Shown one piece after another: positions 41,341-63,639 of a stretch of 64,000 nucleotides of DNA. The notes beneath the pieces are model-generated. The model did not search any database, was not told the origin of the DNA, and saw nothing but the letters and a program-made list of their open reading frames with translations. Made by a program: the position numbers and the translations under genes. This stretch comes from Candidatus Bathyarchaeum tardum (GTDB lineage Archaea > Thermoproteota > Bathyarchaeia > Bathyarchaeales > Bathyarchaeaceae). Within the stretch, counting starts at the first letter, position 1. Every line of letters begins with the position of its first letter. The stretch spans positions 768,001 through 832,000 of the forward strand of contig CP122380.1 in NCBI GenBank assembly GCA_024650005.2. The letters run 5' to 3'.

Positions 41341-41468
41341 ATGTTAGGAATATTTTCCTAACTTTTCTTTTTTTGATTTTGTTTCCTTTTTTTTAAATGA
41401 CTTTTGACTTGGTTTCTGGTTAATTATATCGTATTTGTATTAGATGATTTTATTGGATTTTTTCTTAT

Positions 41469-41525
41469 TTTATTTGGGAACAAGTACTCTGCCTTTTTGG
41501 TCAATTTTGGCGATGTCTTCACTTA
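41469..41525 (-). pseudogene. Relic of an AbrB/MazE-type antitoxin N-terminus
   Basis: Minus strand reads SEDIAKIDQKGRVLVPK then stop. Confidence 0.5.
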
Positions 41526-41801
41526 TTGTTTTTTCCCTCTTTTTTAAGAATTCCACATGAGTAGTGGCTCGAAGATCAACAAGTGTAATTGTTGTTTCTG
41601 GTTCTGGATATGTTGTTATGCCGACAACGAGTTTAGTTTATAGTTAGTTATGCTGTTTTCTAAATCACATATAGTTTATTATTTTTTCAGATGAACTAGA
41701 TCCGTTTGAGAATCTTAGTGAAACAGGTTAAGGTTATGTTAAATGTCTTTTGAGAAATTGTTTAATAATTGTTGGTTGCTTAGAATTTGTGGTGTCATCT
41801 A

Positions 41802-42008
41802 GTGACAATAGCTGTAGACAAAGAGGAGATTCAATTAGTGCTTGACAGATTGGACACAGTTAAGCTTGAGCTTTTGCGGCTTAGGGCGTTGCTTTTGCCT
41901 GAGGAAGATGCAACTGAAGAAGACAAAAAAGAGCTACAAGAAGCAAAAAATGAAATTGCGAATGGTTCAAAAGTCAAGCTTGAAGATTTGATTGAAGAAC
42001 TGTGTTGA
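41802..42008 (+). CDS. Putative antitoxin upstream of RelE
   Basis: Acidic ~68-aa protein directly before a RelE gene; start uncertain. Confidence 0.7.
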   Translation: MTIAVDKEEIQLVLDRLDTVKLELLRLRALLLPEEDATEEDKKELQEAKNEIANGSKVKLEDLIEELC

Positions 42009-42015
42009 TTTTCTT

Positions 42016-42279
42016 TTGTTTCATGTTATTATTTCCCAAAAAGCCAGAAAAGCTTCAAAGAGATTACCTAAAAAATATAGATATCGGATAATTGAGCTTC
42101 TGCGGTTTTTTCGTGAAAATCCTGTTCCTGCCGAATGGTATGATATAAAGAAACTAAAAGGATATACAGATACGTACCGCGCAAGAATCGGTGATTTAAG
42201 AATAATCTATGAAATCGCATGGCATCAAAAAAGTGTGCACATATTAGTAATTAAAAGAAGAGAAAATGTGTACTCTTAA
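42016..42279 (+). CDS. relE: RelE/ParE family toxin
   Basis: IKKLKGYTDTYRARIGDLRIIYEI...RRENVY; start uncertain. Confidence 0.88.
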   Translation: MFHVIISQKARKASKRLPKKYRYRIIELLRFFRENPVPAEWYDIKKLKGYTDTYRARIGDLRIIYEIAWHQKSVHILVIKRRENVYS

Positions 42280-42289
42280 ACTGGAAAAA

Positions 42290-42432
42290 ATGGATGTTGT
42301 TATATTTGGTTCCTGATGTGTTTTTGTAATTACAGCAACTGTTTTGGACGAAATTAAGTAGTTGTTGTTTTTGGTACAGGAAAAATCACAACAACTATTG
42401 GTTTAAGGGTTCTATTAGAACCTGGGATTTTG
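42290..42432 (+). repeat. Modular intergenic repeat (degenerate; hairpin tagttgttg/caacaacta at 42359-42397)
   Basis: Aligns by eye with the copies at 50665, 56405, 57133, 59003 and 62428. Confidence 0.7.
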
Positions 42433-42674
42433 AAATTGCCACGGTTTACGGATGCATCTGGTTTCAGATGATCTGCATTTCAAAAAAATGAAAAATGTAG
42501 AAACAAAGTGGTATGGTGCCTCTGATTTTTTTGATTTTTGTTTTTGGCAGTTTTTTGCTAGGAAGTTTTTAGGTTCTGCATATGTTTAGGGGATAACTGT
42601 TAACTGTCAGAGCTAATTTTTTAATGCTGCTCTGTGAATGAAAATTATTTCTTGTTACGTTTTGGGGTTAATTC

Positions 42675-43310
42675 TTAGAATATGTTGACGAGGGTGGGGT
42701 AAAGAACGTAGACTATGATTAAGTATATTGTAAATAATCCTATTGTTATGATTAGGTTTTTTTGCCATTGTTTGCTGCTTGCGATTCCAAAGGGTACCCC
42801 GATTATGAATCCGATCAAGTGTCCAATGTATGATATGTTTCCTTGGGTTCCGTAATAGAATTCTATTATGTTGAAGAAAAAGTACATTATTGCAACTAAG
42901 CCTAGGGGCATTAAGAATATGAATGAAAATTTTAATGGTTTTAATAGCATGACTATCGCTGTTAAGGTGAATATGGCAGCAGAGGCTCCCAGCATTTGAA
43001 CGTTAGGCGGGTAATAAAATAGGCTGAAAAGAAATGCTCCTATTCCTCCGCAAAAGAAAGGTATGATAACCCATTTTTGTTCTAGTTCGTTTTCTATGGT
43101 GTTTCCGAATATGTAGAAAAAAATCATGTTTCCCCCCAGATGAAAAATGTCAGCGTGTAAAAATATCCCTGTAATTACGGTCCAAATCATTCCTTTTTGA
43201 AGATTTTCACCACTGAATACTAGATTGTTTAGTAACGTTTGGTCACCAATGAACCAGACTGTTAATGAACTTAAAATACAAAATAGAATTAGCACATTGG
43301 TTTTGTTCAT
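42675..43310 (-). CDS. Rhomboid family intramembrane serine protease
   Basis: FLHADIFHLGGNM, GASAA, GHLIG. Confidence 0.92.
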   Translation of the reverse strand: MNKTNVLILFCILSSLTVWFIGDQTLLNNLVFSGENLQKGMIWTVITGIFLHADIFHLGGNMIFFYIFGNTIENELEQKWVIIPFFCGGIGAFLFSLFYYPPNVQMLGASAAIFTLTAIVMLLKPLKFSFIFLMPLGLVAIMYFFFNIIEFYYGTQGNISYIGHLIGFIIGVPFGIASSKQWQKNLIITIGLFTIYLIIVYVLYPTLVNIF

Positions 43311-43502: not shown

Positions 43503-43709
43503 TTGTATTATGGGGTGTTTATTTTGGGTGATGTTTACAAGCCTGAGGATTTTGTTGGTGAACGCAGAAAGCCTTCTGATTTGTCTCCTGGTTTGAATGA
43601 GGTTTTTCCTAAAACGTTGCAAGAAGTTGTTCGTGAGGTTAAGTTATTAAAAAGTGAAGTGGAAAAAATTAAGCAAGCGTTGAAAGCTAACGGAATAGTT
43701 GTTGAATAG
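43503..43709 (+). CDS. Small hypothetical protein
   Basis: C-terminal coiled coil LQEVVREVKLLKSEVEKIKQAL; start uncertain. Confidence 0.55.
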   Translation: MYYGVFILGDVYKPEDFVGERRKPSDLSPGLNEVFPKTLQEVVREVKLLKSEVEKIKQALKANGIVVE

Positions 43710-43797
43710 GGGGTAAGCTGTTTTTTAGTTAACTTTAAGGTTTTGTTGTTGTTGGGGGGAGGGGGGGTCAACAACAACATTTGTGTTTTAAGGAAAA
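43709..43797 (+). repeat. Modular repeat with G-loop hairpin (tgttgttgttg-G-rich-caacaacaaca, 43744-43779)
   Basis: Same hairpin at 47088, 50819, 57298, 59142 and 60191; 5' flank ggggtaagctg..ttagttaac.ttaagg shared with 47056. Confidence 0.9.
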
Positions 43798-43990
43798 AGT
43801 CGTTTATGCTGATTGGGTTTTGTGATAATTACGATTTATGGGGATAAAATGCAGGACAGTAAGAATTGCATGTGAATTTTTTAGTATTTTTAGAGGATTC
43901 TAAATTAGGCCTAAACAAAATTAGAGGCGTTAGTGAACACGGCGTAATGTTAAATAGGTCAAAGTAAAACCTATTTGTAGGGGACTGTAT

Positions 43991-46675: not shown

Positions 46676-46894
46676 CTATTCTATTAGGTTTAGAATTTCT
46701 TCTTTTGTTAAGTCTGCTTCGGATATGATTGTCAGCAGTAGTCCTGTTTTTATTTCTCTGTGTTTTGGAACTGGAACTATGGTTTCGTTTTTGATTAGAA
46801 TTAAGTGGCTTCCTTTTTGTCGGGCAACTTGAAAACCTGCTTTGGCTAGGGCTTTTACTACTTTACGCCAAGAGAGCAGTGGGAGTTTCGACAA
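46676..46894 (-). CDS. hicA: HicA family toxin (near-identical to 56659..56877)
   Basis: KALAKAGFQVARQKGSH...VPVPKH.EIKTGLL..II. Confidence 0.9.
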   Translation of the reverse strand: MSKLPLLSWRKVVKALAKAGFQVARQKGSHLILIKNETIVPVPKHREIKTGLLLTIISEADLTKEEILNLIE

Positions 46895-46994: not shown

Positions 46995-46997
46995 TTA

Positions 46998-47140
46998 TGT
47001 TTTTGTTGTTGTGCATTTGAAAATGATTGTTTGAACAACAGTATCTTTGATTGTTGGGGGTTAAGCTGGTTTTTAGTTAACGTTAAGGTTTTGTTGTTGG
47101 GGAGGGGGGTCAACAACAACATTTGTGTTTGAAGGAAAAT
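46998..47140 (+). repeat. Modular repeat with G-loop hairpin (47088-47121)
   Basis: gaaaatgattgtttgaacaaca module plus gttgttggggaggggggtcaacaacaacatttgtgttt. Confidence 0.85.
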
Positions 47141-47197
47141 TTCTAGTAAGGTAAACAGTTATTGGGGTTTGTTGATTTTTCTAAGTGGAGCACATAA

Positions 47198-48139
47198 ATG
47201 TTGTCTGTTGATGGCACAGTTTTGGTTACTGGGGGTGCAGGTTTCATAGGCAGCCATATTGTCGATCGGTTGCTTAAAGATGGGGTTAAAGTACGGGTTG
47301 TTGATGATCTTTCTACTGGGGATAAATCAAATCTTAGTCAGCATAAAAATAACCCTGATTTTGAGTTCGTCCAAGGAGATATCCGGGATTTTGGTGTTGT
47401 GCAAAAGGCTGTAAAAGGTGTTGATGCCGTAGTTCATGAAGCAGCCCTTGTAAGTGTTATTCAATCTGTTGGGGATCCGTTGTTTTCTAACAGTATTAAT
47501 GTTGTAGGTTCTCTTAATTTGCTTAAAGCCAGTGCAGAAGAAAAGGTGCATCGGTTTGTTTTTGCGTCTTCTTGTGCAGTCTATGGGGCTTGTGAAGATT
47601 TGCCTCTTACCGAAGAGTCTAGTGTAAAGCCTCTTTCTCCGTATGCAGTGGATAAGTTAGCTATGGAAAATTATGCTCGGGTTTTTAATGAGGTCAGTGA
47701 TTTGGAAACGGTTGGTTTGCGGTATTTCAATGTGTATGGACCACGGCAAAAATGTGGTCCGTACTGTGGCGTGATTTCTGTTTTTTTTGATAGTTTCTTG
47801 AGAAATAAGTCTCCTGTTATTTTTGGTGATGGGGAGCAGACCCGTGATTTTGTTAATGTGTCCGATGTTGTTGAAGCTAATTTGTGTGCTTTAACAAGAG
47901 TTCAAGCTGCTGGGCAGGTGTTCAATGTGTGCACTGGGAAAGCAACCACAGTGAACAAGGTTTTAGCTGCTGTTGGGGAAATTGCAGGTAAATCGGAAAT
48001 TGAAGCTGTTTATAAACAGTCTCGAGCAGGAGATATCAAACATAGTTATGGGGATAATAGTAAAGCAAAACGTGGATTAGGTTTTGAAGCGAAGGTTGAT
48101 TTAAAAACCGGTTTATCTGAGTTGTTTTCGGTAGGCTAA
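47198..48139 (+). CDS. NAD-dependent epimerase/dehydratase (extended SDR, GalE/WbpP-like)
   Basis: TGGAGFIGSH, ASSCAVYG, YAVDK, LRYFNVYGP, GDGEQTRDF. Confidence 0.93.
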   Translation: MLSVDGTVLVTGGAGFIGSHIVDRLLKDGVKVRVVDDLSTGDKSNLSQHKNNPDFEFVQGDIRDFGVVQKAVKGVDAVVHEAALVSVIQSVGDPLFSNSINVVGSLNLLKASAEEKVHRFVFASSCAVYGACEDLPLTEESSVKPLSPYAVDKLAMENYARVFNEVSDLETVGLRYFNVYGPRQKCGPYCGVISVFFDSFLRNKSPVIFGDGEQTRDFVNVSDVVEANLCALTRVQAAGQVFNVCTGKATTVNKVLAAVGEIAGKSEIEAVYKQSRAGDIKHSYGDNSKAKRGLGFEAKVDLKTGLSELFSVG

Positions 48140-48261: not shown

Positions 48262-49827
48262 ATGAATAAAATTGTTGTTTTGGATACGTCTGTGATTATT
48301 GATCGGAAAGTTGTTGAAATTATCGAGGCTGAAAAGCCTGAGCAGTTGATAATACCTTATGTGGTGTTGGATGAATTGCAGTCTCAAGCTTCAAAAGGAA
48401 GGGATGAAGGCTACATCGGTTTAGAGCATCTCAAAGTGGTTCGCAAGATTTGTAAGGATCAGCAAATCGAGTTAAGTTTTCAAGGTGAACGTCCAACTTT
48501 GGATGATATAAAGTTGGCCGGCAGCGGACGGCTTGATGCTCTTATTCGGGATGTTTCCAGGAAAAATCAGGGTGTTTTGTTTACTTCGGATTATGTGCAG
48601 TCGTTAGTTGGTGAAGCAGAGGGAATTAAAACCCATTATGTGCCTAAAAAGAGAAAGAAGAGGGCAATGAGTTTTAAGCGTTTTTTCACGCCGGATACCA
48701 TGTCTATTCATTTAAAGCAAGGAGCATCTCCCCTGGCTAAACGGGGTGGTCCGGGCAGTTTTAATCTTGTTAAAATTCGGCTCAAAGCCCTTTCTGAAAA
48801 GGAGTTGAAATTGATGATCAGTCAAATAATGGACGTTGCACGGCGGGAAGAAAAAATTTTTATTGAAATTGACGAGCCTGGGGCTACAGTTATTCAAATG
48901 GGGGAATACCGTATAGCCTTGGCTAAGCCTCCTTTTTCGGATAAGTTAGAAATTACCGTGGTAAGGCCCCTAGTTAAGCTTCGGTTGCAGGATTACCGTC
49001 TTTCCAGTAAATTGATGAATCGGTTAAAGTCCCGAGCCGAAGGAGTGTTAATTGCAGGTCCTCCCGGTTCTGGGAAAACAACTTTTGTTAGTAGTTTAGC
49101 AGATTTTTATTCCAGTCAAGGAAAAATAACCAAAACGTTAGAGTCGCCCCGTGATTTGCAGGTTTGTCCCGAGATTACCCAGTATACTCCCCTGAATGGG
49201 GATTTTGCTAAAACAGCTAGCCTTTTGTTGTTAGTACGTCCTGATTATACGATTTTTGATGAGTTACGGGAAAATTCTACCTTTACTGTTTTTGCGGACA
49301 TGAGGTTAGCCGGAGTTGGCATGATCGGGGTTGTGCATGCTGCTGGGGCAGTTGATGCTGTTAAACGGTTCATATCCCGTGTGGAGTTAGGCATGATTCC
49401 TTCAGTAATAGATACCGTCATATTCATTAAATCTGGAAAAATTGAAAAAATTTATGATTTGTCTTTAACCGTGAAAGTCCCCACCGGGATGTTTGAAGCA
49501 GATTTGGCTCGTCCCCTAGTAGAGGTTAAAGATTTTGAAACTGGAAAGTTGGAATATGAGATTTATACTTTTGGCAAAGAGAATGTTGTTGTTCCAATTA
49601 AAGAAGAGGAGAAAAAAGTTTCTGCTGTTCAGGATTTGGCGTTGCAAAGAATTACTCAAAGTATACAAAAGTACGATAAAGGCGCCCAAATAGAGTTAAC
49701 CGGAAAAAACAGGGCTTTAATTAAAGTTGATAAAAAAGTTATTCCAAGAATCATCGGCAAAAATGGCAAAAACATTTCTAAAATTGAAAAAAATTTGGGT
49801 ATCCAAATTGACATAGAGCCAAAATAA
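48262..49827 (+). CDS. PINA-type ATPase (PIN + P-loop ATPase + KH)
   Basis: VLDTSVIID PIN domain; GPPGSGKTT; ESPRDL; RPDYTIFDE; IIGKNG KH. Confidence 0.9.
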   Translation: MNKIVVLDTSVIIDRKVVEIIEAEKPEQLIIPYVVLDELQSQASKGRDEGYIGLEHLKVVRKICKDQQIELSFQGERPTLDDIKLAGSGRLDALIRDVSRKNQGVLFTSDYVQSLVGEAEGIKTHYVPKKRKKRAMSFKRFFTPDTMSIHLKQGASPLAKRGGPGSFNLVKIRLKALSEKELKLMISQIMDVARREEKIFIEIDEPGATVIQMGEYRIALAKPPFSDKLEITVVRPLVKLRLQDYRLSSKLMNRLKSRAEGVLIAGPPGSGKTTFVSSLADFYSSQGKITKTLESPRDLQVCPEITQYTPLNGDFAKTASLLLLVRPDYTIFDELRENSTFTVFADMRLAGVGMIGVVHAAGAVDAVKRFISRVELGMIPSVIDTVIFIKSGKIEKIYDLSLTVKVPTGMFEADLARPLVEVKDFETGKLEYEIYTFGKENVVVPIKEEEKKVSAVQDLALQRITQSIQKYDKGAQIELTGKNRALIKVDKKVIPRIIGKNGKNISKIEKNLGIQIDIEPK

Positions 49828-50034: not shown

Positions 50035-50043
50035 GTGTTAAGT

Positions 50044-50662: not shown

Positions 50663-50664
50663 TT

Positions 50665-53216: not shown

Positions 53217-53217
53217 C

Positions 53218-55104: not shown

Positions 55105-55512
55105 TTATTTTGTGGATTTTGTGATGTCGTTCAGTCTTAAAGCTTTGGTATTGGATGCGATCTTTTTTGTTAGTTGCAAATCTTCGGTTATAAGTGTTAG
55201 TTCTTTTGCTTTGGCATGGTAAGTGTATGAGGCGTCATAGAATGTGATTTTCAGTTTTGTTGCGGTTTCTAGTATTTCTTCTTCGGTGCAGTTTATTTGT
55301 GTGATTTCCATGAGGTTTAGTGTTTGCTTGATTATTTTTGCTAGTTTTTTAATTTCTTGATCTGTAGCGTTGGCGTGTAAGGAATAATTTTTCCATAGGA
55401 TGTTTCCCAGTTCGTACCTTGCCAGTTCTATTGTGTGGTTTCCAATTAGAAAGTCGATTTTGTTTTCTTTTATGGCGTTAAATATGGCAGATGAGTCGAA
55501 TAGGTATTTCAT
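55105..55512 (-). CDS. vapC: PIN-domain toxin VapC
   Basis: YLFDSSA, YELGN, ITFYDASY, LITED. Confidence 0.9.
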   Translation of the reverse strand: MKYLFDSSAIFNAIKENKIDFLIGNHTIELARYELGNILWKNYSLHANATDQEIKKLAKIIKQTLNLMEITQINCTEEEILETATKLKITFYDASYTYHAKAKELTLITEDLQLTKKIASNTKALRLNDITKSTK

Positions 55513-55739
55513 TTACGGTTTCTGTCCTCTCTTATGCCCTTCACTATGTTTTCTATGTTTACCCTGTTGAGTGTTGGTTTTAGTTTTTGTATGTCTTCTT
55601 TGAGTTTTTCTGCTTCTCTTCGTCTTATTTCGTCTTCTATGGCTTTTCGTAATAGTTTGGATGGTTTAATGTTTAGTTGTTTTATTTTTTCTTTGAGTTC
55701 TTGGGGAATTTTTGTGGATACGGTTACAGACTTGTTCAA
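55509..55739 (-). CDS. vapB: RHH/CcdA-like antitoxin (VapB)
   Basis: TVSTKIPQELKEKIKQLNIKPSKLLRKAIEDE...IREDR; 4-nt overlap with the toxin. Confidence 0.85.
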   Translation of the reverse strand: MNKSVTVSTKIPQELKEKIKQLNIKPSKLLRKAIEDEIRRREAEKLKEDIQKLKPTLNRVNIENIVKGIREDRNRK

Positions 55740-55974: not shown

Positions 55975-56198
55975 ATCGACAATAATAGAGCTTTCTTTTC
56001 TCGATTTTTGTTGTTTATGAATTGATGATGTTATTGTTTGGTCAGAGTTTTATGTTTTCAGTTTGACTGCAGAGGGTTTTTTGTGAATAAGGTTTTAGAT
56101 TTCAAGCATGGTTTAAGGATAGTTTATGAGAATAGAAAAAGACTATTTACTGGTCATCACTTTTTATCCGGTGAGGCGAGACAGATATGGCATATAAA
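55975..56198 (+). pseudogene. Frameshifted DUF4258-like toxin upstream of the DUF2283 gene
   Basis: KVLDFKHGLRIVYE, then in another frame KDYLLVITFYPVRRDRYGI*, overlapping the next start; 5' limit approximate. Confidence 0.6.
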
Positions 56199-56399
56199 AT
56201 TAGGTACGATGATGAGTCAGATGTGCTCACCTTAGTCGTAGTTGACAAGGGTAAACTGTCTTACGCTGAAGAAGTAGGGGACATAGTAGTTCATTTTGAT
56301 GAAAAAGGAAACCCCTTATTCATGGACATCCTTAAAGCCAGCAAGATCGTCCCGCTAATGGTTCAAAGTTTAGCTAAAAAAGAAGTTATAACAGCATAA
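56187..56399 (+). CDS. DUF2283-type antitoxin-like protein
   Basis: IRYDDESDVLTL...DIVVHFDEKGNP..MDIL.ASK. Confidence 0.85.
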   Translation: MAYKIRYDDESDVLTLVVVDKGKLSYAEEVGDIVVHFDEKGNPLFMDILKASKIVPLMVQSLAKKEVITA

Positions 56400-56404: not shown

Positions 56405-56595
56405 CTTTTGAATAACAACAAATGTAGTTGTAGTTGGTTCAGCAACTGTCGCTACCAGGGCAACAACTGTTTTGGAAAGAGTGTAGAAGTAGTCATCTTT
56501 TTGGTACCCAGAATGGACGACTACTACTACCTTAAGGAATGGGTCAAAACACGTTTGTTGCTTGAACCTGATTATGTAAAAAATGCTGGTTTTGG
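56405..56595 (+). repeat. Modular repeat (hairpin 56488-56525), absent from the homologous site at about 46590
   Basis: caactgttttggaaagagtgtagaagtagtcatc...gacgactactactac. Confidence 0.88.
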
Positions 56596-56658
56596 TGGGT
56601 TTTGGATTTTTTAGATCCGAATTAGCATTTGTTTAATTGTTATAGACAACTTTTTTTG

Positions 56659-56877
56659 TTATTCTATTAGGTTTAGAATTTCTTCTTTTGTTAAGTCAGC
56701 TTCGGATATTATTGCCAACAGTAGTCCTGTTTTTATTTCTCTGTGTTTTGGAACGGGAACTATGGTTTCGTTTTTGATTAGAATTAAGTGGCTTCCTTTT
56801 TGTCGGGCAACTTGAAAACCTGCTTTGGCTAGGGCTTTTACTACTTTACGCCAAGAGAGCAGTGGGAGTTTCGACAA
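56659..56877 (-). CDS. hicA: HicA family toxin
   Basis: RQKGSH, VPKH, GLL.II. Confidence 0.92.
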   Translation of the reverse strand: MSKLPLLSWRKVVKALAKAGFQVARQKGSHLILIKNETIVPVPKHREIKTGLLLAIISEADLTKEEILNLIE

Positions 56878-57079
56878 TGACCTCAGCCCGTTCTCCTTTA
56901 TGGCCGTGGCTCAAAAGTTCCGCTTTTACTTCTAAGTATCCTTCTATGGCTTCTTTGATGTTTTTTAGAGCTTCTTGCTTTGTTTCACCCTGAGTGGCTA
57001 CTGGAAGTTCGACACATTTTACCACAAAGCCGCCTTCTTCTGCAGGTTCTAACAAGACTGTGAAAGTACGGGCATCCAT
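56846..57079 (-). CDS. hicB: HicB family antitoxin (short form)
   Basis: EEGGFVVKCVELPVATQGETKQEALKNIKEAIEGYL. Confidence 0.92.
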   Translation of the reverse strand: MDARTFTVLLEPAEEGGFVVKCVELPVATQGETKQEALKNIKEAIEGYLEVKAELLSHGHKGERAEVIVETPTALLA

Positions 57080-57132: not shown

Positions 57133-57365
57133 TAGTTGTTGTTCGTGTTGAAAATTGTTTGAACAACAACGTTTTGGAAAGAGCATGGAAGTAGTCGTCT
57201 TTTTGGTATACAGTTACTGGATGACTACTACTCCCTTAAAGAGTGCATTAAAACCTGTTTGGACCGTTGAACACGATTTTGCATAATATGCTAGTTTTGT
57301 TGTTGTTGGGGGGTAGGGGGGGTCAACAACAACATTTTTGTTTGTTGAAAAATTGTTTGAACAAT
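57133..57365 (+). repeat. Most complete modular repeat: three tandem hairpins (57135-57170, 57190-57229, 57298-57334)
   Basis: gttgttgttc/gaacaacaac; agtagtcgtc/gatgactact; tgttgttgttg/caacaacaaca. Confidence 0.92.
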
Positions 57366-57400: not shown

Positions 57401-57904
57401 TTACTTAATGCTTGATTGTATATGGCAAAGATGTTTTCGGATTTCTTCGATTTGCTTTGTGGTTATATTTTCTAAGGCTTTTTCTATTTCTAATAGGAAG
57501 TTATGAGCAGATTTTACGTTTTTTGTGATTGTTGTTTGTTCAAGTTCATTAGTTACATAGTATTGGCTTTCTATTCGCATTTGTTTAGCTTTAGAAATTT
57601 CATCAATCAGGTTTTTGGCAAGTATTTTATGGTCTGCAAGTAATTTTGCCACTTTGATGCTGCAATCGTGTATTTCAGATTTGATTCCCAGTTTCATTAA
57701 TAGCGCATATAGTGCAAAATATTTAGCGTAATACGCTGTTGTTATTACCCAGTCAGTTTCGTTTATTTGTAAAGCTGCATCCATTGTATGCAAGGAGCTT
57801 TCGGCTTTTTTTACGTATACCCTGGATAGGTTTTCATTTGGTTCGATTAGTCTTATTCCCTTTTTTTGTCTAAAACACCATTCAACAGATCTACGTAGCA
57901 ACAT
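57401..57904 (-). CDS. HEPN domain protein
   Basis: WVITTAYYAKYFALYALL..LGIKSEIH.C; R...QYY. Confidence 0.85.
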   Translation of the reverse strand: MLLRRSVEWCFRQKKGIRLIEPNENLSRVYVKKAESSLHTMDAALQINETDWVITTAYYAKYFALYALLMKLGIKSEIHDCSIKVAKLLADHKILAKNLIDEISKAKQMRIESQYYVTNELEQTTITKNVKSAHNFLLEIEKALENITTKQIEEIRKHLCHIQSSIK

Positions 57905-58502
57905 AGTTCCTCCATAACAAGTTTACAAACAAGTCTGGGTTTTGTAAAATGAAGTGGTTTTTTATTATTTCTTTTACCAGGGGGTCTCCAGTTGTTAGAG
58001 CTTGATTGAAATTTTTGATAGAGGATGTTTTGACGTTTAGTTCTTTGCCGTAGATTTTGCCAATTTTTTTTATGTTTGTCATTTGGTTTTCTGAAATTTT
58101 TCCAAGATGAAAAAGGTCTATGTCACTGGTTTCGGTTGCATAATTTTTTGCGTAGCTTCCAAAGAGTGCAACGGTTCCCTGAAGGTTTACGTCCATAAGG
58201 TGTTGGGATATTTTTTTGAGTAAAAAATTTTTTTGTAGATATTTTATGGTTTCAAGTTTTTCAGATAACATAAGATATTCTTTTGTCAATATGTTGCTGA
58301 ACTCAAGGCAGTATTCTTTGTTTCTTCCCACTTTTTGTGATTGCAGTATTTTGTTCTTTTCAAGGTTTTTAAGGTAAGGCAGTAATGTAACATGACTTGT
58401 GTTGAGAAGTTTGGCGAGGGCTCTTACATGGAAGCTTTTGTTGTAATCTGTTCTGTATAATGCTAGTATTGAAAAAAGATAATTGGTAATTTTTACGACC
58501 AT
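57891..58502 (-). CDS. HTH + nucleotidyltransferase (MNT) protein paired with HEPN
   Basis: Start reassigned to MVVKIT at 58502; HVRALAKLL HTH; LFGSYAKNYATETSDIDL. Confidence 0.88.
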   Translation of the reverse strand: MVVKITNYLFSILALYRTDYNKSFHVRALAKLLNTSHVTLLPYLKNLEKNKILQSQKVGRNKEYCLEFSNILTKEYLMLSEKLETIKYLQKNFLLKKISQHLMDVNLQGTVALFGSYAKNYATETSDIDLFHLGKISENQMTNIKKIGKIYGKELNVKTSSIKNFNQALTTGDPLVKEIIKNHFILQNPDLFVNLLWRNYVAT

Positions 58503-58544
58503 ATGGTATAAAGTATTACCAGTATTATTTAAGTTTTTACTAGC

Positions 58545-58695
58545 ATGAAACAGCCCCAAGACGGACAGGTACTGCGATTCGGATTTTTCTCTCATCCATC
58601 ATGATCATGTGAGCCCTTTTGGAGGACGATTTTGAGGCCTGTTTTTTGTAGAATTTTTATGAGTTGTTTGAAGTCTAAAGGTGAAATTTTAGGCT
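58545..58695 (-). pseudogene. hicA: Frameshifted, truncated hicA
   Basis: PKISPLDFKQLIKILQKTGLKIVLQKGSH, then frameshift to IMMDERKIRIAVPV. Confidence 0.75.
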
Positions 58696-58916
58696 AGTAT
58701 CTTCACTTTTTGTATTCCAACTATTCTTTGTTGGAGAGAGTCTTGTTTTTCGTCATTGTCTAATGTTTCAAGGTACAAGTCGATGGTCTCTTTTGCATTG
58801 TCCATAAGTTCTTCTAAAGTATCTCCCTGAGTGTGGCATCCTGGCAACGCTGGAACAAGCGCCACGTATCCACCAGTTTCGTCTTCGATGATAACGATGT
58901 CAACCTCTTTCATCAT
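58689..58916 (-). CDS. hicB: HicB family antitoxin
   Basis: EDETGGYVALVPALPGCHTQGDTLEELMDNAKETIDLYL. Confidence 0.92.
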   Translation of the reverse strand: MMKEVDIVIIEDETGGYVALVPALPGCHTQGDTLEELMDNAKETIDLYLETLDNDEKQDSLQQRIVGIQKVKILA

Positions 58917-59002
58917 AATCCAATTACAATGAGCTTCAAGGGCTAATATAACAGTTTTGAAGCAACTAATTGGTTATAGTAAGGCTTAAACAAGTGAAAA
59001 GA

Positions 59003-59185
59003 TGGTTGAACAACAACATTTTGGAAAGAATACAGAAGTAGTCGTCTTTTTTTTACAGAATTCTGGACGACTACTACTTCTTTAAAGAATGCATTAAAGC
59101 AGGTTTGTTGGTTGGATAGGATTATGTAATAATGCTAGTTTTGTTGTTGTTGGGGGTAGGGGGGTCAACAACAACATTTGGTTTT
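59003..59185 (+). repeat. Near-complete modular repeat (hairpins 59037-59075 and 59142-59176)
   Basis: Similar to the 50665 and 57133 copies. Confidence 0.92.
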
Positions 59186-59232
59186 GTGGGAAAAATTCCA
59201 TAAAAAGAGCGTATTTTTTGATACAGATGAAT

Positions 59233-59583
59233 TTATCGGGTTTTTATGCAAATTTCGTCGTTTTTGAGCCATACATAAATAGGTGTTCCCTTTTCCAGCC
59301 CGAGTTGTTCTTCAATCTGCTTAGGTATGTAAACTGCAAGGTTGTTTCCACATTTTGTGACCTTCCTTTGCAACGGATTTACTTCTCCAAAAAGACCTAA
59401 AGTTTCTGCTAAATGTTGCACTTTTTCAGCGTCTTCAAATGGTATAAGTTCATATCCGCATAAGGAACATTTGTATCCCCGTATTGGGAGGCTTCCTTTA
59501 GGAAACTTAGTTTCCAGAATGTCAGCTTGCATTTCTCCGCCACATTCATAGCATTTCATTTTTTCAGATTTTTCCATTTTCAT
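59233..59583 (-). CDS. Zinc-finger (YgiT/MqsA-like) + AbrB-domain antitoxin-like protein
   Basis: CYECGG...CSLCG; RKVTKCGNNLAVYIPKQI...LGLEKG. Confidence 0.8.
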   Translation of the reverse strand: MKMEKSEKMKCYECGGEMQADILETKFPKGSLPIRGYKCSLCGYELIPFEDAEKVQHLAETLGLFGEVNPLQRKVTKCGNNLAVYIPKQIEEQLGLEKGTPIYVWLKNDEICIKTR

Positions 59584-59589
59584 CGCTCC

Positions 59590-59826
59590 TTATACTAATT
59601 TTCTTCGTGATGTGGATACGCCTCGCACTTCAATACGGTCGGCATATTCGGTTAAATACACTATGATTGTTCTTCGACTGATCCATTTGGCATATCTGCC
59701 TCCTTGGATGCCATCTGGATTTGTTATGGTCTCCCTCACGTCTGAGGTGCGGATTGGCGGGGCTTCACAATTCATTCCTTCGTAGGCGTGTTTGTTTATG
59801 TAAACCCATTTACCACGTATTATCAT
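59590..59826 (-). CDS. Putative DUF4258/BrnT-like toxin
   Basis: Start MIIRGK at 59826; INKHA...DVRETITNPD...IIVY; upstream of the Zn-AbrB gene. Confidence 0.6.
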   Translation of the reverse strand: MIIRGKWVYINKHAYEGMNCEAPPIRTSDVRETITNPDGIQGGRYAKWISRRTIIVYLTEYADRIEVRGVSTSRRKLV

Positions 59827-59849
59827 GATGGAAAACCATGAATATATAC

Positions 59850-59883
59850 TTTGTAAGTATTTATAAGTATTTATACTTACAAA
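59850..59883. promoter_or_regulatory. Inverted repeat tttgtaagtat/atacttacaaa around a TATA-like core
   Basis: About 25 nt upstream of the 59826 start. Confidence 0.6.
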
Positions 59884-60164
59884 AAAGTTGTTAGGCATGT
59901 GTACCTTTAAAACATGGACGTTATCACGCTCAGGTGACCCCGCACTCCACTTGGCACGCAGCTTGGTTACCTAACTATTAGTTAGTATCGCGAAATATTA
60001 TTTAAATCAGTATCTGGGAAATTTTCCCAGATAGTTTGAATCTTTTCGGCGTTATGTCGTAAACCGCAACTCTGAAATTCTTCGTGGAAACTCAGAAAAA
60101 ACATTTCACAGGAGATTATTTGTCTGAGGCTGATATTGTCAAAGAAACTGCAATTACCTGTGAT

Positions 60165-60305
60165 AAACGATTATGTAAATATGCTAGTTTTGTTGTTGTT
60201 GGGGGGTAGGGGGGTCAACAACAACATTTGTGTTTAAAGGAAAAATTGTTGTAAGAATATGCAGTATTGGGTTTTTTGATGTTTCTAGGTGGATCACATA
60301 AAGAT
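60165..60305 (+). repeat. Partial modular repeat with G-loop hairpin (60191-60226) followed by a copy of the epimerase leader
   Basis: 60240-60305 resembles 47135-47200. Confidence 0.85.
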
Positions 60306-60309
60306 GTTA

Positions 60310-60513
60310 GTTGGTTTGGGTAAAGTTTGGTTTGTTTGCCATGCGCTTGAAGCTGTCGTCATGGGTGCTGGTTTTGTTTATGTTTATGTTTAGTGAATGG
60401 ATTGTACCTATTATTGTTGCATCTCTGTCGCCTAAGCTGTCTGTGTATGGGTGTTGTAGTAGTTTTTCCAGGGTTTATGTCATTGTTTGCTTGTTGAAGT
60501 TTTCGATTTTCAT
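60310..60513 (-). pseudogene. Relic of a PIN/VapC gene
   Basis: ...SLGDRDATIIGTIHSL...THDDSFKRMANK, with a stop; DNA similar to 49900-49960. Confidence 0.55.
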
Positions 60514-60959: not shown

Positions 60960-60971
60960 ATTGTGAACGCC

Positions 60972-61265: not shown

Positions 61266-61520
61266 ATTTTATGCAAACTAGGTTATTTTAACCTAGCTAT
61301 TTATATTGCTTCTTTCAAAAATGTGTATTTAATACTTTTGATTGTTTACTATGTAAGGATGTTCTGTTTTTTATAGTTTAGACGCATTCTGTATTATTAT
61401 TTTTCGTTTGTTTTTTCTTATAGTTCGGTTTATTGGTTGGTCGATTTAAAGATCAAAACGGTTTCTGTAAACAAGTATCTGCTTTTCAGCGAAAGCCGGT
61501 TACTGTTTTATTTGTATCAA

Positions 61521-62363
61521 TCAAATTTCAAGAGCACCATTTGTCAATTCGATTAAAGTTTTATAGGCTTCAGTTTTTCCAAAAAGAACTGAGTCAGGTA
61601 TCAGTGTCCCGAATCTGGATTTTTCTTTTAACACATAAAGAAATATGATTATTTCTTTTGCGAGTCCTCTTCTGCTTGCATATCGGGTAAGGCGGTTAAA
61701 ATTGATTTTTCCATTTTTCAGAAGATTTCCAAAAATAATTCCCAATTCGTATGAGCTAAAACTAAATTTTTTTCGGGTAATAAAATAGAACAAGTCTACC
61801 CACATTCTCTCTAAAGTTGGAATAATGGGTCCTTTTGCCATAATGAGTCCGTAAAGTTCTTTTCGTTCCAAAATGAATATTGTTTTTCTGTTGTTTTCAG
61901 CGTATTCTTGAAAATCTCTTACTAGAGGTCGCAAAACAACTTTGTAAGTGTTTGATGGGATTGCATCTCGGATACTTTTTGAAAGTATTTTTGTTGTTTC
62001 AATAAATATTGCATCCTTTCCTATAGCATAATGAGAATAATCTGAAAACATACTCAAAGACCAATATACTGGATTTGCCATTGGGAAGCGATTTTTTAAC
62101 TGCGTGGTAAGATCGTAAACATCTGAGGGCAAAATTGGTATTTCAGGCGGAGTTTGACCTTTGCGATATATGCCCCTGCCCACATTCATGATTATGCCCA
62201 TTTTTGCCATTCGACTTAGGTAATTTTTTGCGGTTACACGAGATATTTTTAGATCAGACACAAGATTGTCTATTGAAACGTTGTCATGATTTGTTACGTA
62301 TTCGATTGCTTTTTTTGGGACCGAGGAAAAATCACTCATGAAAAAAAAATATACCTTTGTCAA
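61521..62363 (-). CDS. AbiEi-like (type IV TA) antitoxin with N-terminal wHTH
   Basis: YLSRMAKMGII.NVGRGIY; PTLERMWVD; INFNRLTRYASRRG. Start may be ATG 62339. No intact toxin downstream. Confidence 0.75.
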   Translation of the reverse strand: MTKVYFFFMSDFSSVPKKAIEYVTNHDNVSIDNLVSDLKISRVTAKNYLSRMAKMGIIMNVGRGIYRKGQTPPEIPILPSDVYDLTTQLKNRFPMANPVYWSLSMFSDYSHYAIGKDAIFIETTKILSKSIRDAIPSNTYKVVLRPLVRDFQEYAENNRKTIFILERKELYGLIMAKGPIIPTLERMWVDLFYFITRKKFSFSSYELGIIFGNLLKNGKINFNRLTRYASRRGLAKEIIIFLYVLKEKSRFGTLIPDSVLFGKTEAYKTLIELTNGALEI

Positions 62364-62427
62364 TATATAAGGTTTGTTGTCAAAAGTATATTTTTGGTCT
62401 TGAAATTTTTAATCACGTGATTAACTG

Positions 62428-62540
62428 AGTTAAAAAATATTTGAACAAGCGCCCCTTTGGAAAGAATACAGAAGTAGTTGTTGTTTTTTGTGCATGTAAT
62501 TCACAACAACTAGTTTAAAAAATGCATCAAATCGTTTTTG
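62428..62540 (+). repeat. Modular repeat (hairpin tagttgttgt/acaacaacta, 62475-62512)
   Basis: ttggaaagaatacagaagtag identical to the 59021-59041 copy. Confidence 0.82.
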
Positions 62541-62695
62541 GATATTTAAACATGTTTTTGGAATAAATGTTGATAAAACTCAATATAAGTTGCCACATCT
62601 TCAACACTTATTCTAACCAATCTTTTGAGGTTTTCTTTGTTTAAAGGTGACATAGTTTATCACCCATCAAGCAAGCGATCTTTTTTGTACACAAT

Positions 62696-62803
62696 TTAGA
62701 CCTTTTTTTTTCCCGCATCAGATCGTTTCTTTCTCCATGAACCGTCTTTGTTTCTTTCTCTTTCTTTTGACCATTTGCCTTTTTTTACTCGAGGTGCAGG
62801 CAT
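62696..62803 (-). CDS. 35-aa basic microprotein
   Basis: MPAPRVKKGKWSKERERNKDGSWRKKRSDAGKKKV*; below the ORF-track cutoff. Confidence 0.55.
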   Translation of the reverse strand: MPAPRVKKGKWSKERERNKDGSWRKKRSDAGKKKV

Positions 62804-62957
62804 ATTATTCCCTGAGAAACAAATTATGGTATATTTAGTATAAAAATTTAATTATGAAAACAAAATAATACTGATTGATGGATAAAAAGTCTTTTTTATA
62901 ACTAACAAGATACAAATTCAAGGGGCATAAAAAATTCCTCGAAAGAAAAAATCCATC

Positions 62958-63350
62958 TTGTCGGATGCACTTGGTTTAAATGATTTAAAGATAAAACCTG
63001 CAAAACTTCCAAAAATAAAACCAATTAGCAGTATCATTTTGAAATTTGATTCTGAAGAAAAAAGAGTTGCAATTCCAGCAAGTACTAAAAAAGAAGTTTA
63101 CTCACGCGCAAAAGGTAAATGTGAAAGTTGTGGAACAAAAATGAAAATGACAGGTGATGGAGGAGATTTTCATCACACTAGAAAACCCAGTGTTAAATCA
63201 AGGCCGTCTTCAATACAGTTTTTGTGTGCTGTTTGCCACCGTAGATATGGACATGCAAAACGTACAAAAATAGTCAAAAATGCATTTGGAACTGTTATTG
63301 AAAAGAAAGTAACCATAACCCGAAGAAAAGTTGGTAAACATAAACAATAG
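62958..63350 (+). CDS. HNH endonuclease
   Basis: RVAIPASTKKEVY...CESC...DFHH...FLCAVCH. Confidence 0.8.
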   Translation: MSDALGLNDLKIKPAKLPKIKPISSIILKFDSEEKRVAIPASTKKEVYSRAKGKCESCGTKMKMTGDGGDFHHTRKPSVKSRPSSIQFLCAVCHRRYGHAKRTKIVKNAFGTVIEKKVTITRRKVGKHKQ

Positions 63351-63639
63351 ATTAGTTTTTTGTTATAGTATTTGGTTTTGTGTGTTGTGCGAAGAGAAGT
63401 AGATAAGGGTAGCGAGTAGAGTTAAACAGGAGAAAAAATAAGGGGAAAAAGCATAAATTTTAACCAACCAGCCTTAAATTCATAATACAATCTTTTGTTA
63501 TTTCCCATTTTTTTTAATTTATGTGAGTTATCCACATATTGAATCAAGTCGTCTTTGATATTTTGGCGTATTCTTGTTTTGGGTTGGTTTTTGGGTTTGG
63601 AGAGATTTTTAGGGGTTGTTGTTTGTGTTGTGTTTGGTT

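Follow-up and report, generated by a model that had tools for sequence, protein, structure and literature searches.

Within the 64,000-nucleotide stretch of Candidatus Bathyarchaeum tardum DNA analysed here (the window, whose first letter is position 1), a cassette-like array begins at 42.3 kb. It was originally predicted to end at 63400 but in fact reaches 72.0 kb (window position 72,027), i.e. 8 kb beyond the window, and holds five or six further units. Besides this extension, the prediction had missed the epimerase relics behind hairpin 3 and the occurrence of the hairpins in a viral gene, both described below. The array is flanked on the left by a conserved dodecin gene (41116..41340, +; Pfam Dodecin, 4e-23), whose DNA is 84% identical in the same-genus relative G016, and on the right by a NAD-epimerase gene, the first of a glycosylation cluster. 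It comprises about 20 modules of one or two genes, which are separated by a co-oriented composite repeat; 19 ORFs lie on the + strand and 25 on the - strand. As predicted, toxin-antitoxin (TA) modules lie between the repeats. At least 13 of the approximately 20 modules are TA-like according to Pfam and PADLOC, and include ParE, HicA(B), VapBC, PIN-CcdA and MNT-HepT (two each), a further HicB, HEPN-NT, AbiEi and an AbrB-type module.

The repeat unit contains at most three hairpins, whose stems are (GTT)n/(AAC)n. At 57133..57365 (nhmmer, folding), where a full three-hairpin unit is followed by a partial hairpin 1, the hairpins were found as described before and folded separately and locally on both strands; the DNA fold had a z of -3.4, and none of 200 shuffles was equally stable. 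Arms of 10-12 bp enclose loops of 14-20 nt, and GTTGTTGTT...AACAACAAC form the outer arms of the unit. Units are built in modules, with the 5' arm of hairpin 1, hairpin 2 or hairpin 3 missing from many; in one subtype, another segment takes the place of hairpin 2. In hairpin 2, 98.6% of cells are paired and two pairs are changed on both sides, while hairpin 3 is much better conserved than the rest of the unit around it. Strong conservation also extends to the unpaired segments ATTTTGGAAAGAG, TTTAAAGAATGCAT and GTTGAACA.GATT and to the leader after hairpin 3. A promoter-like TTTAAAG box follows hairpin 2 and is itself followed by a hairpin plus T-run.

The left part of the array (units on the + strand throughout) starts with a 73-aa ORF plus a ParE-family toxin (41787..42279, +; Pfam ParE_toxin, 4.6e-06), a partial unit with a hairpin 2 of the GTTGTT class (42326..42424; nhmmer 1.8e-05, profile positions 28-128) and a unit of the subtype having hairpin 3 but not hairpin 2 (43709..43800; blastn, nhmmer). 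HicA toxin copy 1 (46676..46894, -; Pfam HicA_toxin, 4.2e-17) neighbours a hicB gene truncated by the next unit (46998..47142, with hairpin 1, a subtype-B segment and hairpin 3; nhmmer), which is the one exception to the claim that all copies are intergenic. An intact NAD-dependent epimerase gene (47198..48139, +; Pfam Epimerase, 2.4e-62) is preceded by hairpin 3 and the conserved leader (aligned by eye). Next to it lies the gene of a PINA-like PIN-ATPase-KH protein (48262..49827, +; NCBIfam PRK13764, 1.6e-217), which gave a single tblastn match in the genome and is present in one of five relatives. VapB(AbrB/MazE)-VapC(PIN) copy 1 (50035..50662, +; Pfam) adjoins a full unit (50654..50868; nhmmer 1.8e-55) and an internal relic of the epimerase gene (aa 108-149; 50901..51023, +; tblastn 67% identity, 5e-08).

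Further right are a unit with hairpin 1 and a hairpin-2 variant (53118..53220; direct-repeat search, nhmmer), a ParE toxin plus 70-aa partner (53218..53704, -; Pfam), hairpin 1 alone (54039..54073; direct-repeat family D8), copy 1 of the MNT nucleotidyltransferase-HepT RNase module (54184..54824, +; Pfam), a unit with hairpins 1 and 2 (54865..54995), copy 1 of the PIN toxin-CcdA/RHH antitoxin module (55105..55739, -; Pfam), a DUF2283 gene (56187..56399, +; Pfam 3e-09), a unit devoid of hairpin 3 (56405..56617; nhmmer 3.2e-42) and HicA-HicB copy 2 (56659..57079, -; Pfam). The full unit at 57133..57365 is followed by a HEPN plus nucleotidyltransferase module (57401..58595, -; Pfam), a HicB-like antitoxin gene (58689..58916, -; Pfam 6.6e-12), a unit with the 3' arm of hairpin 1 and hairpins 2 and 3 (58985..59197; nhmmer 6e-56), and an AbrB/MazE-domain protein plus 102-aa ORF (59233..59898, -; Pfam). 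Hairpin 3 with the leader and the initial codons of an epimerase relic (60156..60333, +; nhmmer, alignment), an AbiEi-like (DUF6577) antitoxin gene (61521..62363, -; Pfam 2.8e-29; PADLOC AbiEi, 1.1e-31) and a unit with the 3' arm of hairpin 1, hairpin 2 and a spacer (62418..62571; nhmmer 1.5e-15) complete this part.

All 11 clear copies listed in the original prediction (42290, 43709, 46998, 50665, 53117, 54865, 56405, 57133, 59003, 60165 and 62428) were recovered by direct-repeat search, which yielded 19 direct-repeat families in window 40000-64000, by blastn and by nhmmer. The weaker copy at 54030 holds up as the solitary hairpin 1 at 54039-54073; the one at 41577 is only a small GTTGTTATGCCGACAAC hairpin missed by nhmmer. 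When the unit was compared with the whole genome by blastn, 15 of 25 HSPs fell in genome 811,740-840,027, every one on the + strand. With the unit profile, nhmmer found 31 matches at E<=1, of which 16 lie in genome 810,326-840,005, i.e. in 1.4% of the 2.15-Mb genome, all of them in the + orientation that had been predicted to be common to the copies. The remaining 15 matches lie outside the array on both strands (10 +, 5 -). Beyond the array there are one full unit (genome 2,099,434-2,099,633), partial units on the - strand (genome 1,182,129 and 1,747,016) and about nine solo copies of hairpin 3 on both strands.

The off-array copies are among several observations that would fit a rather unlikely alternative, namely that the repeat itself is mobile. 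It would be a MITE- or BIME-like non-autonomous palindromic element, or consist of hairpin modules that move independently, and would have colonized the spacers of an existing TA island. Cassettes would then be passive and later recombination between copies incidental. The mosaic make-up of units from separable modules, the resemblance of GTTGTTGTT...AACAACAAC to terminal inverted repeats, two isolated units in unrelated contexts in G016, and a flipped hairpin-3 loop in G016 and L011 are consistent with such mobility. So is a 197-nt unit between the DUF2283 gene and hicA at 56398-56594, which has TTTTG at both edges and is missing at the paralogous site 46590-46611. However, neither a clean empty site nor a consistent target duplication was seen, and the confinement of 16 of 16 array copies to one strand of one locus is unlike the dispersed MITE/REP families. 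Genes for Y1/RAYT, TnpB or IS110 proteins, a search for which had been proposed, were not found in the genome and no transposase in the array. Finally, insertion of repeats leaves the fixed switch point of cassettes (see below) unexplained.

An integron was rejected since no attC-like site was found in the repeats, as already stated in the original prediction, and no integron integrase in the genome. Likewise, Pfam revealed no transposase or integrase among the ORFs from 39 kb to 82 kb in window coordinates, and no tyrosine recombinase match was obtained between genome positions 654,247 and 944,251, in agreement with the predicted lack of such genes nearby. The lack of a recombinase in or adjoining the array also counts against the interpretation of the repeats as recombination joints, which is preferred here and developed below.

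Pieces of the epimerase gene 5' end recur as relics behind hairpin 3 in the array (tblastn). Their mutual identity is only 70-79%, and they are therefore not recent internal duplications. This argues against the very unlikely possibility that the units have an ordinary function in regulation or as RNA (TTTAAAG box, hairpin plus T-run, epimerase-gene leader), were copied when segments upstream of the epimerase gene were duplicated, and play no special role in recombination. Such a function would account for the conserved unpaired segments, for the position of hairpin 3 and leader before the epimerase gene or a relic in five of eight cases, and for the one palindrome of hairpin-2 type that directly precedes the epimerase gene in G016. 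Yet the units matched no Rfam family, are also located before 3' ends of minus-strand genes, and as regulatory elements would leave both the fixed switch point and the strain-level turnover of cassettes unexplained.

Five cassettes are present twice in the array with 82-98% identity and with differing neighbourhoods and order: (i) the ParE-module stretch 41738-42023 (82% identical to window 67301-67590); (ii) VapBC copy 1 (94%, 68775-69574); (iii) MNT-HepT copy 1 (98%, 67620-68530); (iv) PIN-CcdA copy 1 (93%, 69500-70675); (v) HicA-HicB copy 2 (95% identical to 46612-47002). One copy of PIN-CcdA comes after MNT-HepT and the other after VapBC; downstream of VapBC there is a canonical unit in one copy and PIN-CcdA in the other. 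In three junction pairs the partner switches within the same 10-13 nt, CAACAACAT(TTTG), of the 3' arm of hairpin 1, the switch point being the 3' foot of this hairpin (CAACAAC|AT). A three-way alignment further showed that unit 54865..54995 is a hybrid of two other units, switching at CAACAACAT. Judged by length, this homology is short for ordinary homologous recombination, although hairpin 3 offered identical runs of 36-42 nt. Against a role as joints, however, only three of approximately nine boundary pairs of duplicated cassettes lie at the hairpin-1 foot in both copies, and these three may reflect as few as two events. Two more coincide with a hairpin foot in one copy only, three are devoid of a hairpin, and one falls on the 5' edge of hairpin 1, where the alignment of the hicA copies stops (47002) and hicB is truncated. 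Boundaries away from hairpins fit imprecise recombination as well.

The interval between the dodecin and epimerase genes measures 30.7 kb here versus 5.5 kb in G016, where it contains one HEPN/NT pair and the hairpin-2-type palindrome mentioned above. The pair at 57401..58595 is of the type found upstream of the epimerase gene in G016. None of the other species-level genomes searched has such an array, which counts against the units being joints; a few isolated units were present in two of 40 relatives.

Strain variation was assessed in short Logan contigs of public metagenomes, which break at repeats and leave variants unphased; runs X1 and X2 belong to the study that probably gave the genome, and X3 to an independent one. 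Cassette-sized blocks differed 8- to 50-fold in depth, and in X2 unit-bounded blocks at a depth of about 77-600 were found beside blocks of 3000-6000. One X2 contig skips the ParE cassette 53178-54083 with the breakpoint directly after CAACAT; the joint 53177->54084 has a depth of 3425, and the bin 53339-54005 is of low depth. Joints ending in unit 53118..53220 were located at 53138/9, 53177 and 53208. Another cassette order, represented by the joint 60333->52519, was detected in X2 (depth 3903) and X3 (depth 10.4), bearing in mind that paralogous units outside the compared stretch can mimic such joints. X3 contained 0.35 of the words of 50001-60000, with shared pieces about 98-99% identical. 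No circular cassette was seen, which likewise counts against the units being joints.

The array's hairpins 2 and 3 represent variants of a covarying hairpin which proviruses of the genus carry in a gene just upstream of the large terminase gene. Copies with 100% identity to hairpin 3 over 37-42 nt, including the loop, occur in a 137-aa provirus gene that overlaps the start of the terminase large subunit gene; the provirus also encodes a tail-tube protein, an HK97-gp10-like protein and an integrase. In the homologues from five other species of the genus a hairpin is retained at the same codon positions (VVV...TTT), and the stems covary: that of G004 (GAAGTAGTCGTC/GACGACTACTTC) equals the stem of hairpin 2 in the array, and that of G003 is GAAGTTGTTGTT/ACAACAACTTC. 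In IMG/VR, five of seven matches to the hairpin-2 pattern and two of 34 to the (GTT)3 pattern lie in a 137-aa-type gene beside terL (terL 53-69% identical), and three of six metagenome matches overlap a fragment of such a gene. Together with the conservation of hairpin 3 far beyond its surroundings, these data would suit an origin of the hairpins as copies of a cis-acting site in resident tailed viruses, the simplest candidate being a packaging (pac-like) or other protein-binding site. Viral proteins might cut or package at the chromosomal copies, such that transduction spreads cassettes and breaks reshuffle them; alternatively, the copies could be decoys against the virus. We consider this unlikely. 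The 137-aa gene matched no terminase-small-subunit family and only weakly a PHROG 'transcriptional regulator', and 'pac' is thus a guess from position. Array and viral copies share hairpins but not flanks, viral contigs yielded no unit-specific sequence, one proviral remnant has the loop in inverted orientation to the gene, and (GTT)n palindromes are frequent in unrelated viruses (32 of the 34 matches).

Directly observed are the anatomy of the array, its expansion compared with the relative, the switch at one fixed point in three pairs of junctions, and the differences between strains. The locus is a strain-variable cassette array, integron-like in its working but no integron. We give about even chances to the view that the repeats are its recombination joints. 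Exchange between two co-oriented units would delete, duplicate or loop out the cassettes in between, and re-entry at another unit would result in reshuffling or in gain of new cassettes. The preferred crossover would be the 3' foot of hairpin 1 (…AACAAC|AT…), so that hairpin 1 moves with the left cassette and hairpins 2 and 3 with the right one. Growth would have proceeded upstream of the epimerase gene and left its 5' relics behind hairpin 3. The cut would be made by a hairpin-directed activity, either a putative trans-acting enzyme or fork stalling and template switching at palindromes, rather than by ordinary long-homology recombination. The originally proposed platform for gene capture or shuffling is thus partly supported, with respect to shuffling and accretion, by the synteny (5.5 versus 30.7 kb), the reordered duplicates, the fixed switch and the strain differences.

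Several known systems share features with the array. The packaging site of a helper phage lies in or next to chromosomal DNA in phage-inducible chromosomal islands and in lateral transduction. The array similarly holds chromosomal copies of sequence from the packaging-gene region of a resident virus, but it lacks capsid-remodelling, integrase and replication genes, and packaging is a putative role of its hairpin. REP/BIME clusters are mobilized by RAYT transposases, and related palindromic elements derive from IS200/IS605. They share mosaic intergenic units built from palindromes and a strand bias; unlike them, the array is in a genome devoid of Y1 transposase and TnpB, with tens rather than hundreds of copies, half of them in one locus. 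Where integrative elements accrete in tandem at a gene or tRNA end, a series of direct repeats also arises, each with a relic of the target gene (here the epimerase 5' end), whereas the array contains no integrase or fragment of one, its modules measure 0.5-3 kb and relic lengths are irregular. The pdif (XerC/XerD-site) modules of Acinetobacter plasmids are small, often TA pairs, bounded by short recombination sites, and likewise vary in order between related replicons. However, dif-type sites measure 28 bp including a 6-bp spacer, and their orientation alternates, in contrast to the longer-looped, uniformly oriented hairpins of the array. Sedentary chromosomal integrons and CALINs, e.g. the Vibrio superintegron with its VCR repeats, are also comparable. 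Differences are the lack of R''/R' boxes and of a single imperfect 57-141-nt stem, in place of which three perfect hairpins occupy about 230 nt, the genome without integron integrase, ORFs running both ways, and many imprecise boundaries with recurring relics of a flanking gene. Among the annotated archaeal cassette proteins surveyed by Ghaly et al. (2022; PMC9668308), TA systems form the largest class, and most of the archaeal integrons in that survey are reported without a nearby integrase, as CALINs; the array resembles them in both respects. It also shares with integrons a long one-orientation series of folded repeats between one- or two-gene cassettes, and a junction at a fixed point, the 3' foot of a hairpin, so that every repeat combines parts from two cassettes.

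The three hairpins claimed for the unit at window 57133-57365 are present and fold locally and independently of one another on either strand; as DNA its + strand reaches -28.9 kcal/mol (z = -3.4; none of 200 shuffled sequences was equally stable). In window 40000-64000, 19 families of direct repeats were detected, most of them pieces of this unit. The genome of Candidatus Bathyarchaeum tardum is a single contig of 2.15 Mb (38% G+C, 97.9% complete), and its genes for thermosome, RLI and RNA cyclase mark the organism as an archaeon. A blastn search with the unit gave 25 HSPs in this genome, 15 of which lie within genome positions 811,740-840,027, all on the + strand. On the genome-wide map that the original prediction had proposed, 16 of the 31 nhmmer matches (profile built from eight units, E<=1) are clustered in 810,326-840,005 and all are on the + strand, in agreement with the single orientation claimed for the array, whereas the 15 others, outside the array, use both strands (ten +, five -). 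As the matches of both searches reach that far, the array extends over window 42.3-72.0 kb, 8 kb past the window end; the predicted limits of 41460..63400 thus contain an array but miss its real end at 72.0 kb. All 11 copies previously called clear were recovered by direct-repeat search, blastn and nhmmer. Of two copies called weak, the one at 54030 has hairpin 1 but no other hairpin, and nothing more than a small related hairpin lies at 41577.

The units are mosaics. Hairpin 1 is frequently without its 5' arm, hairpin 2 or hairpin 3 is missing from some units, and two (43709 and 46998) have a different middle segment. Across the seven full units, 98.6% of the cells of hairpin 2 are paired, with two pairs altered on both sides (CG to UA); the corresponding values are 90.9% for hairpin 3, with no compensatory changes, and 51.9% for hairpin 1, which is low because its 5' arm is cassette-specific. 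The window contains no tRNA gene and no Rfam family. Rfam 15 produced no match at gathering score over the whole window and just one unrelated match (ROSE_2, E 0.69) over 56300-59300 at E<=1.

Toxin-antitoxin (TA) genes between the units comprise two ParE modules, two HicA/HicB modules and a lone HicB, two modules each of VapBC, PIN-CcdA and MNT-HepT, a HEPN-nucleotidyltransferase, AbiEi, and an AbrB/MazE-type protein. The non-TA genes code for a rhomboid protein, LemA and an M48 peptidase, an NAD-epimerase, a PINA-like PIN-ATPase-KH protein, a UDP-GlcNAc 2-epimerase and several unknowns. Nineteen ORFs of the array are on the + strand and 25 on the - strand, and 36% of the array is non-coding. 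Consistent with the absence of an integrase or transposase noted earlier for the window, Pfam detected neither domain among the ORFs of window 39-82 kb. The PINA-like gene (window 48262-49827), single-copy in this genome and of the Holliday-junction branch-migration ATPase family, was considered as an essential stabilising gene of the array; this idea was dropped because the gene was found in only one of five relatives searched, where it carries an internal stop. Within the array (window 64003-66317), an unknown ORF of 366 aa has a paralogue with 62% amino-acid identity and the UDP-GlcNAc 2-epimerase gene one with 74%; these paralogues (genome 855,649-856,746 and 737,634-738,680) are located in glycosylation clusters flanking the array on either side. 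Just left of the array, a 924-aa ORF (window 29256-32120, - strand) belongs to a large gene family present in many copies; its initial ~800 nt match at least 12 places in the genome and many contigs of three relatives (G016, G003 and G018) at 63-70% identity.

The array is also the strongest outlier of the genome in GC skew and strand composition, the affected region extending over window ~27000-64000 and on to genome position 845 kb. GC skew is 0.15-0.19 in 30-kb windows starting at 795-815 kb (genome mean 0.002, sd 0.035). In the intergenic DNA of the array the + strand is G+T-rich (GC skew 0.27, AT skew -0.16), and G exceeds C on the + strand across genes of either strand, more weakly in minus-strand genes. 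Possible sources of the skew are decayed GTT-rich repeats or one strand that is often single-stranded. A reading of the G-rich hairpin as a replication-origin (ORB-like) element was dropped, since neither the ORFs of window 39-82 kb (Pfam) nor 15 large upstream ORFs (NCBIfam) gave an orc/cdc6 domain match, and since the cumulative skew extremes of the genome are at ~520 and 1550 kb.

Five cassettes are present twice, with different neighbours in the two copies: an antitoxin-like cassette (window 41738-42023 and 67301-67590; 82% identity), HicAB (95%), VapBC (94%), MNT-HepT (98%) and PIN-CcdA (93%). In three-way alignments, VapBC, taken with its own hairpin 1, precedes a canonical unit at 50.7 kb but PIN-CcdA at 69.5 kb; MNT-HepT, likewise with its hairpin 1, precedes PIN-CcdA at 54.9 kb but a canonical unit at 68.4 kb. 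In the three junction pairs the switch of partner always lies within CAACAACAT(TTTG), i.e. the 3' arm of hairpin 1, so that hairpin 1 goes with the left cassette and hairpins 2 and 3 go with the right one. Boundaries were clean in both copies in ~3 of 9 pairs and not clean in ~6 of 9. At the unit at 46998, hicB is truncated where hairpin 1 has its 5' edge. One unit of 197 nt, at 56398-56594, is lacking from a paralogous site; TTTTG is found at both edges of this filled/empty pair, and the empty site is not clean. Furthermore, three cassette ends have no hairpin: the right end of PIN-CcdA, the left end of MNT-HepT copy 2 and that of VapBC copy 1. The truncated hicB, the 197-nt difference and the hairpin-less ends argue against a purely precise mechanism. 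A second short motif, GGTTTGTTT(T)GC, occurs at cassette edges (window 49895-49945, 52395-52425 and 60310-60375), in two cases followed by GCGCTTGAAG..GTCGTCATGGG, and also at joint endpoints of the sequencing runs (49879, 49914, 52519 and 60333).

The MFS gene to the left of the array gave no usable anchor, being conserved in 0 of 24 species of the genus, and synteny was therefore examined by searching the DNA of five relatives. In G016, another species of the genus, 5.5 kb separate the dodecin gene from the orthologous epimerase gene. Between the two lie a flippase gene, small ORFs, one HEPN/NT pair and one hairpin-2-type palindrome directly upstream of the epimerase gene. In B. tardum the locus is expanded: the same anchors, the dodecin gene (window 41116-41340) and a frameshifted epimerase gene (72089-73010), are 30.7 kb apart. 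Inside the array, an intact, divergent epimerase gene (47198-48139) is preceded by hairpin 3 and a conserved leader, and the same arrangement precedes three epimerase relics that correspond to aa 108-149 (50901-51023), the first codons (~60300-60333) and aa 8-83 (67069-67296). The relics are mutually just 70-79% identical at the DNA level and look like leftovers from separate acquisitions beside the epimerase 5' end rather than like recent internal copies.

For strain variation, the contigs of four (X1 to X4) of six public metagenome runs, none recorded as RNA, were compared with window 44001-64000; these data are contigs only and unphased. Run X1 covered the stretch at an even depth of ~170-210 and without differences, and is therefore probably the source of the genome. 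Contigs of X2, a run of the same study, fell into three depth classes (~3700-3900, ~440-460 and ~77). Its low-depth bins (51338-52004, 53339-54005, 55340-56673, 57341-58007, 59342-60008 and 60676-63343) correspond to cassettes between units, and the adjoining bins have depths of 3000-6000. One X2 contig (depth 3425) skips the ParE cassette, 53177 being joined to 54084 directly after CAACAT of hairpin 1. A further joint, 60333 to 52519, was found in a 984-nt X2 contig (depth 3903) and in a contig (depth 10.4) of X3, a run of another study; position 60333 is the end of the hairpin-3 leader plus epimerase relic, and this order is absent from the genome. The proposed strain comparison thus yielded a skipped cassette with one breakpoint at the foot of hairpin 1. 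Among 15 listed joints (34 further ones aside), 12 of the 30 endpoints lie inside units, which make up ~8% of the stretch; as mapping artefacts too are drawn to repeats, this figure is weak. Of the sampled words of 50001-60000, a fraction of 0.35 is found in X3, while the pieces that it shares are ~98-99% identical, which indicates fast cassette turnover. The stretch is partly uncovered in X3 and X4, and the joint 46502 to 54393 was seen in X1 as well.

The original observation holds and is extended. We favour, at about an even chance, the reading that the locus is a repeat-jointed, strain-variable cassette array, integron-like in its working but outside the integrons by attC and integrase searches, and operated by a putative enzyme. 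That the repeats serve purely regulatory functions is very improbable.

Outside B. tardum the unit was found in two of 40 related genomes, with three matches in G016 and one weak match in G010. The hairpin-2 pattern has seven sites in B. tardum and one or two in each of three of the 24 other species of the genus. Scans of public genome and metagenome contigs revealed no second array. In public genome contigs the exact hairpin-3 form had no locus, and the hairpin-2 pattern occurred in just two contigs (L010 and L011, 2.6 kb each) of a 'Clostridiales' MAG. They match dispersed B. tardum units and flanks, L010 with identities of up to 96% and 90% and L011 with 82% (to the 2.099-Mb unit); they are therefore probably misbinned archaeal contigs, and they add no array. 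The metagenome scan gave six short contigs with one hairpin each and no array.

Solo copies of hairpin 3 (~9) occur elsewhere in the B. tardum genome on both strands, four of them sharing 37-42 nt with the copy of unit 57133 at 100% identity. Five share a repeated context of ~500 bp which, where intact, is a 137-aa ORF (genome 645,813-646,223; L008:5813-6226, in the provirus terminase region) that reads hairpin 3 in frame (…GLNVVVGGVGGSTTT…). Other sites of this viral-gene type are at 619,147, 350,259, 1,548,382 and 1,896,869. The ORF overlaps the start of the terminase large-subunit gene in a provirus that has tail-tube, HK97-gp10-like and integrase genes; it has homologues in seven of the 24 other species of the genus and matched no terminase-small-subunit family. 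In five aligned homologues the hairpin lies at the same codons (VVV...TTT), with different but mutually compensating stems, and in other species and IMG/VR contigs this covariation persists even at the cost of amino-acid changes. The stem in G004, GAAGTAGTCGTC/GACGACTACTTC, is that of array hairpin 2, the (GTT)n-type stem is that of array hairpins 1 and 3, and further versions occur in G003 (GAAGTTGTTGTT/ACAACAACTTC), G007, G014 and G002. In IMG/VR, five of seven hairpin-2 matches and two of 34 (GTT)3 matches fall in the family of the 137-aa gene, beside terL genes 53-69% identical; three of the six metagenome matches overlap a fragment of the viral gene. In a flipped form, with a C-rich instead of a G-rich loop, hairpin 3 is found at L004:2536-2583 (G016), at the end of L011 and at genome 1,548,382; stems and flanks keep their orientation, which amounts to a spacer flip between inverted repeats.

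The array joints are thus built from variants of a conserved cis element of the virus family, and its position suggests that the viral hairpin may be a packaging site. The unit profile has the hairpins, but not the flanks, in common with the viral genes, and for this reason a reading of the whole unit as a decayed remnant of that gene was rejected; the unit-specific spacer motif had no locus in viral contigs. A virus-driven mechanism acting through the shared hairpin is quite unlikely. In an explicit version, which we consider distinctly improbable, the array would be a virus-coupled gene-exchange platform, an integrase-free functional analogue of the integron with a viral cis site as its 'attC'. 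The joints would carry up to three variants of the hairpin that tailed viruses of the genus keep, with compensatory changes, in the terminase-adjacent gene; viral or co-opted host proteins would recognize it and cut or start packaging at chromosomal copies; and the TA and defence cassettes, once excised, would be transduced and inserted again at the foot of the hairpin.

On the favoured reading of a cassette array, a closed archaeal genome would show integron-like population behaviour (TA-rich cassettes, folded joints in one orientation, a fixed junction point and fast strain turnover) while lacking attC, IntI and every known hairpin-specific transposase. Should an enzyme be at work here, it would represent a hairpin-directed recombination activity of a new kind; should replication or repair by the host at palindromes be enough, this would be a route to cassette arrays without a dedicated integrase. 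Joint hairpins identical to a covarying hairpin of a viral packaging region would tie the turnover of TA and defence islands to resident viruses, which is testable in the cultured or enriched organism.

Archaeal integrons described so far have canonical attCs that overlap bacterial diversity and were found in MAGs only (PMC9668308). No such repeat came up in our search of the literature on integron-like arrays and on archaeal TA islands. Genome-wide, the proposed search for mobile-element enzymes gave no match to the Y1 (HUH) transposase (PF01797) or the IS110 DEDD transposase (PF02371) in this 97.9%-complete genome, nor any to TnpB (PF07282). REP/BIME sequences with RAYT and IS200/IS605 elements need a cognate Y1 or TnpB, and IS110/bridge-RNA elements need a DEDD transposase, none of which had a match here. 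A mobile repeat of MITE or BIME type is unlikely. MITEs have terminal inverted repeats, target-site duplications, dispersed copies and a related autonomous element; in the unit studied here the outer arms are inverted repeats, half of its copies lie in one locus, and no autonomous element was found among the Y1, TnpB and IS110 families. Xer/dif sites are 28 bp long, consist of two 11-bp arms around a 6-8-bp spacer and alternate in orientation; the array hairpins, as read from the sequence, have 10-12-bp arms, 14-20-nt loops and a single orientation. Tyrosine recombinases, sought next to the copies, were absent within 100 kb of the array among the ten PF00589 matches of the genome (nearest at 653.8 and 944.3 kb). 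Among the six of these with full ORFs (four short or broken ones left out), the best score was 75 bits for the integron integrase TIGR02249 (cut-off 265) and 96 bits for XerA (cut-off 220). Xer-like recombinases with scores short of the family cut-offs are present in the genome.

To our knowledge, integrons are the sole well-understood cassette-array platform, and archaeal ones have been recognized solely by canonical attC/IntI signatures in MAGs. In attC sites, R'' (RYYYAAC) and R' (GTTRRRY) boxes pair at the base of one imperfect stem of 57-141 nt. A crude scan of our own over window 41400-72100 on both strands gave two motif pairs per strand, none with R and L complementarity, and this result together with the fold of the unit, three hairpins instead of one stem, upholds the original view that the repeats are not attC sites. 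The array differs from integrons in that neither an attC-like site nor IntI was found, and in its ORFs, 19 on + and 25 on -, while integron cassette ORFs are mostly co-oriented and promoterless. Integron sites are co-oriented, with the cassette boundary at one fixed position; in the array the sites are co-oriented (16/16) and a fixed switch was seen in three junction pairs and one strain deletion, but ~6 of 9 boundary pairs are unclean. Its unit is a hybrid of left and right cassette, like the hybrid attC sites of integrons. Finally, the array resembles pseudo-pac or PICI-like systems in that its hairpin 3 is identical to sequence in the packaging-gene region of a resident virus.
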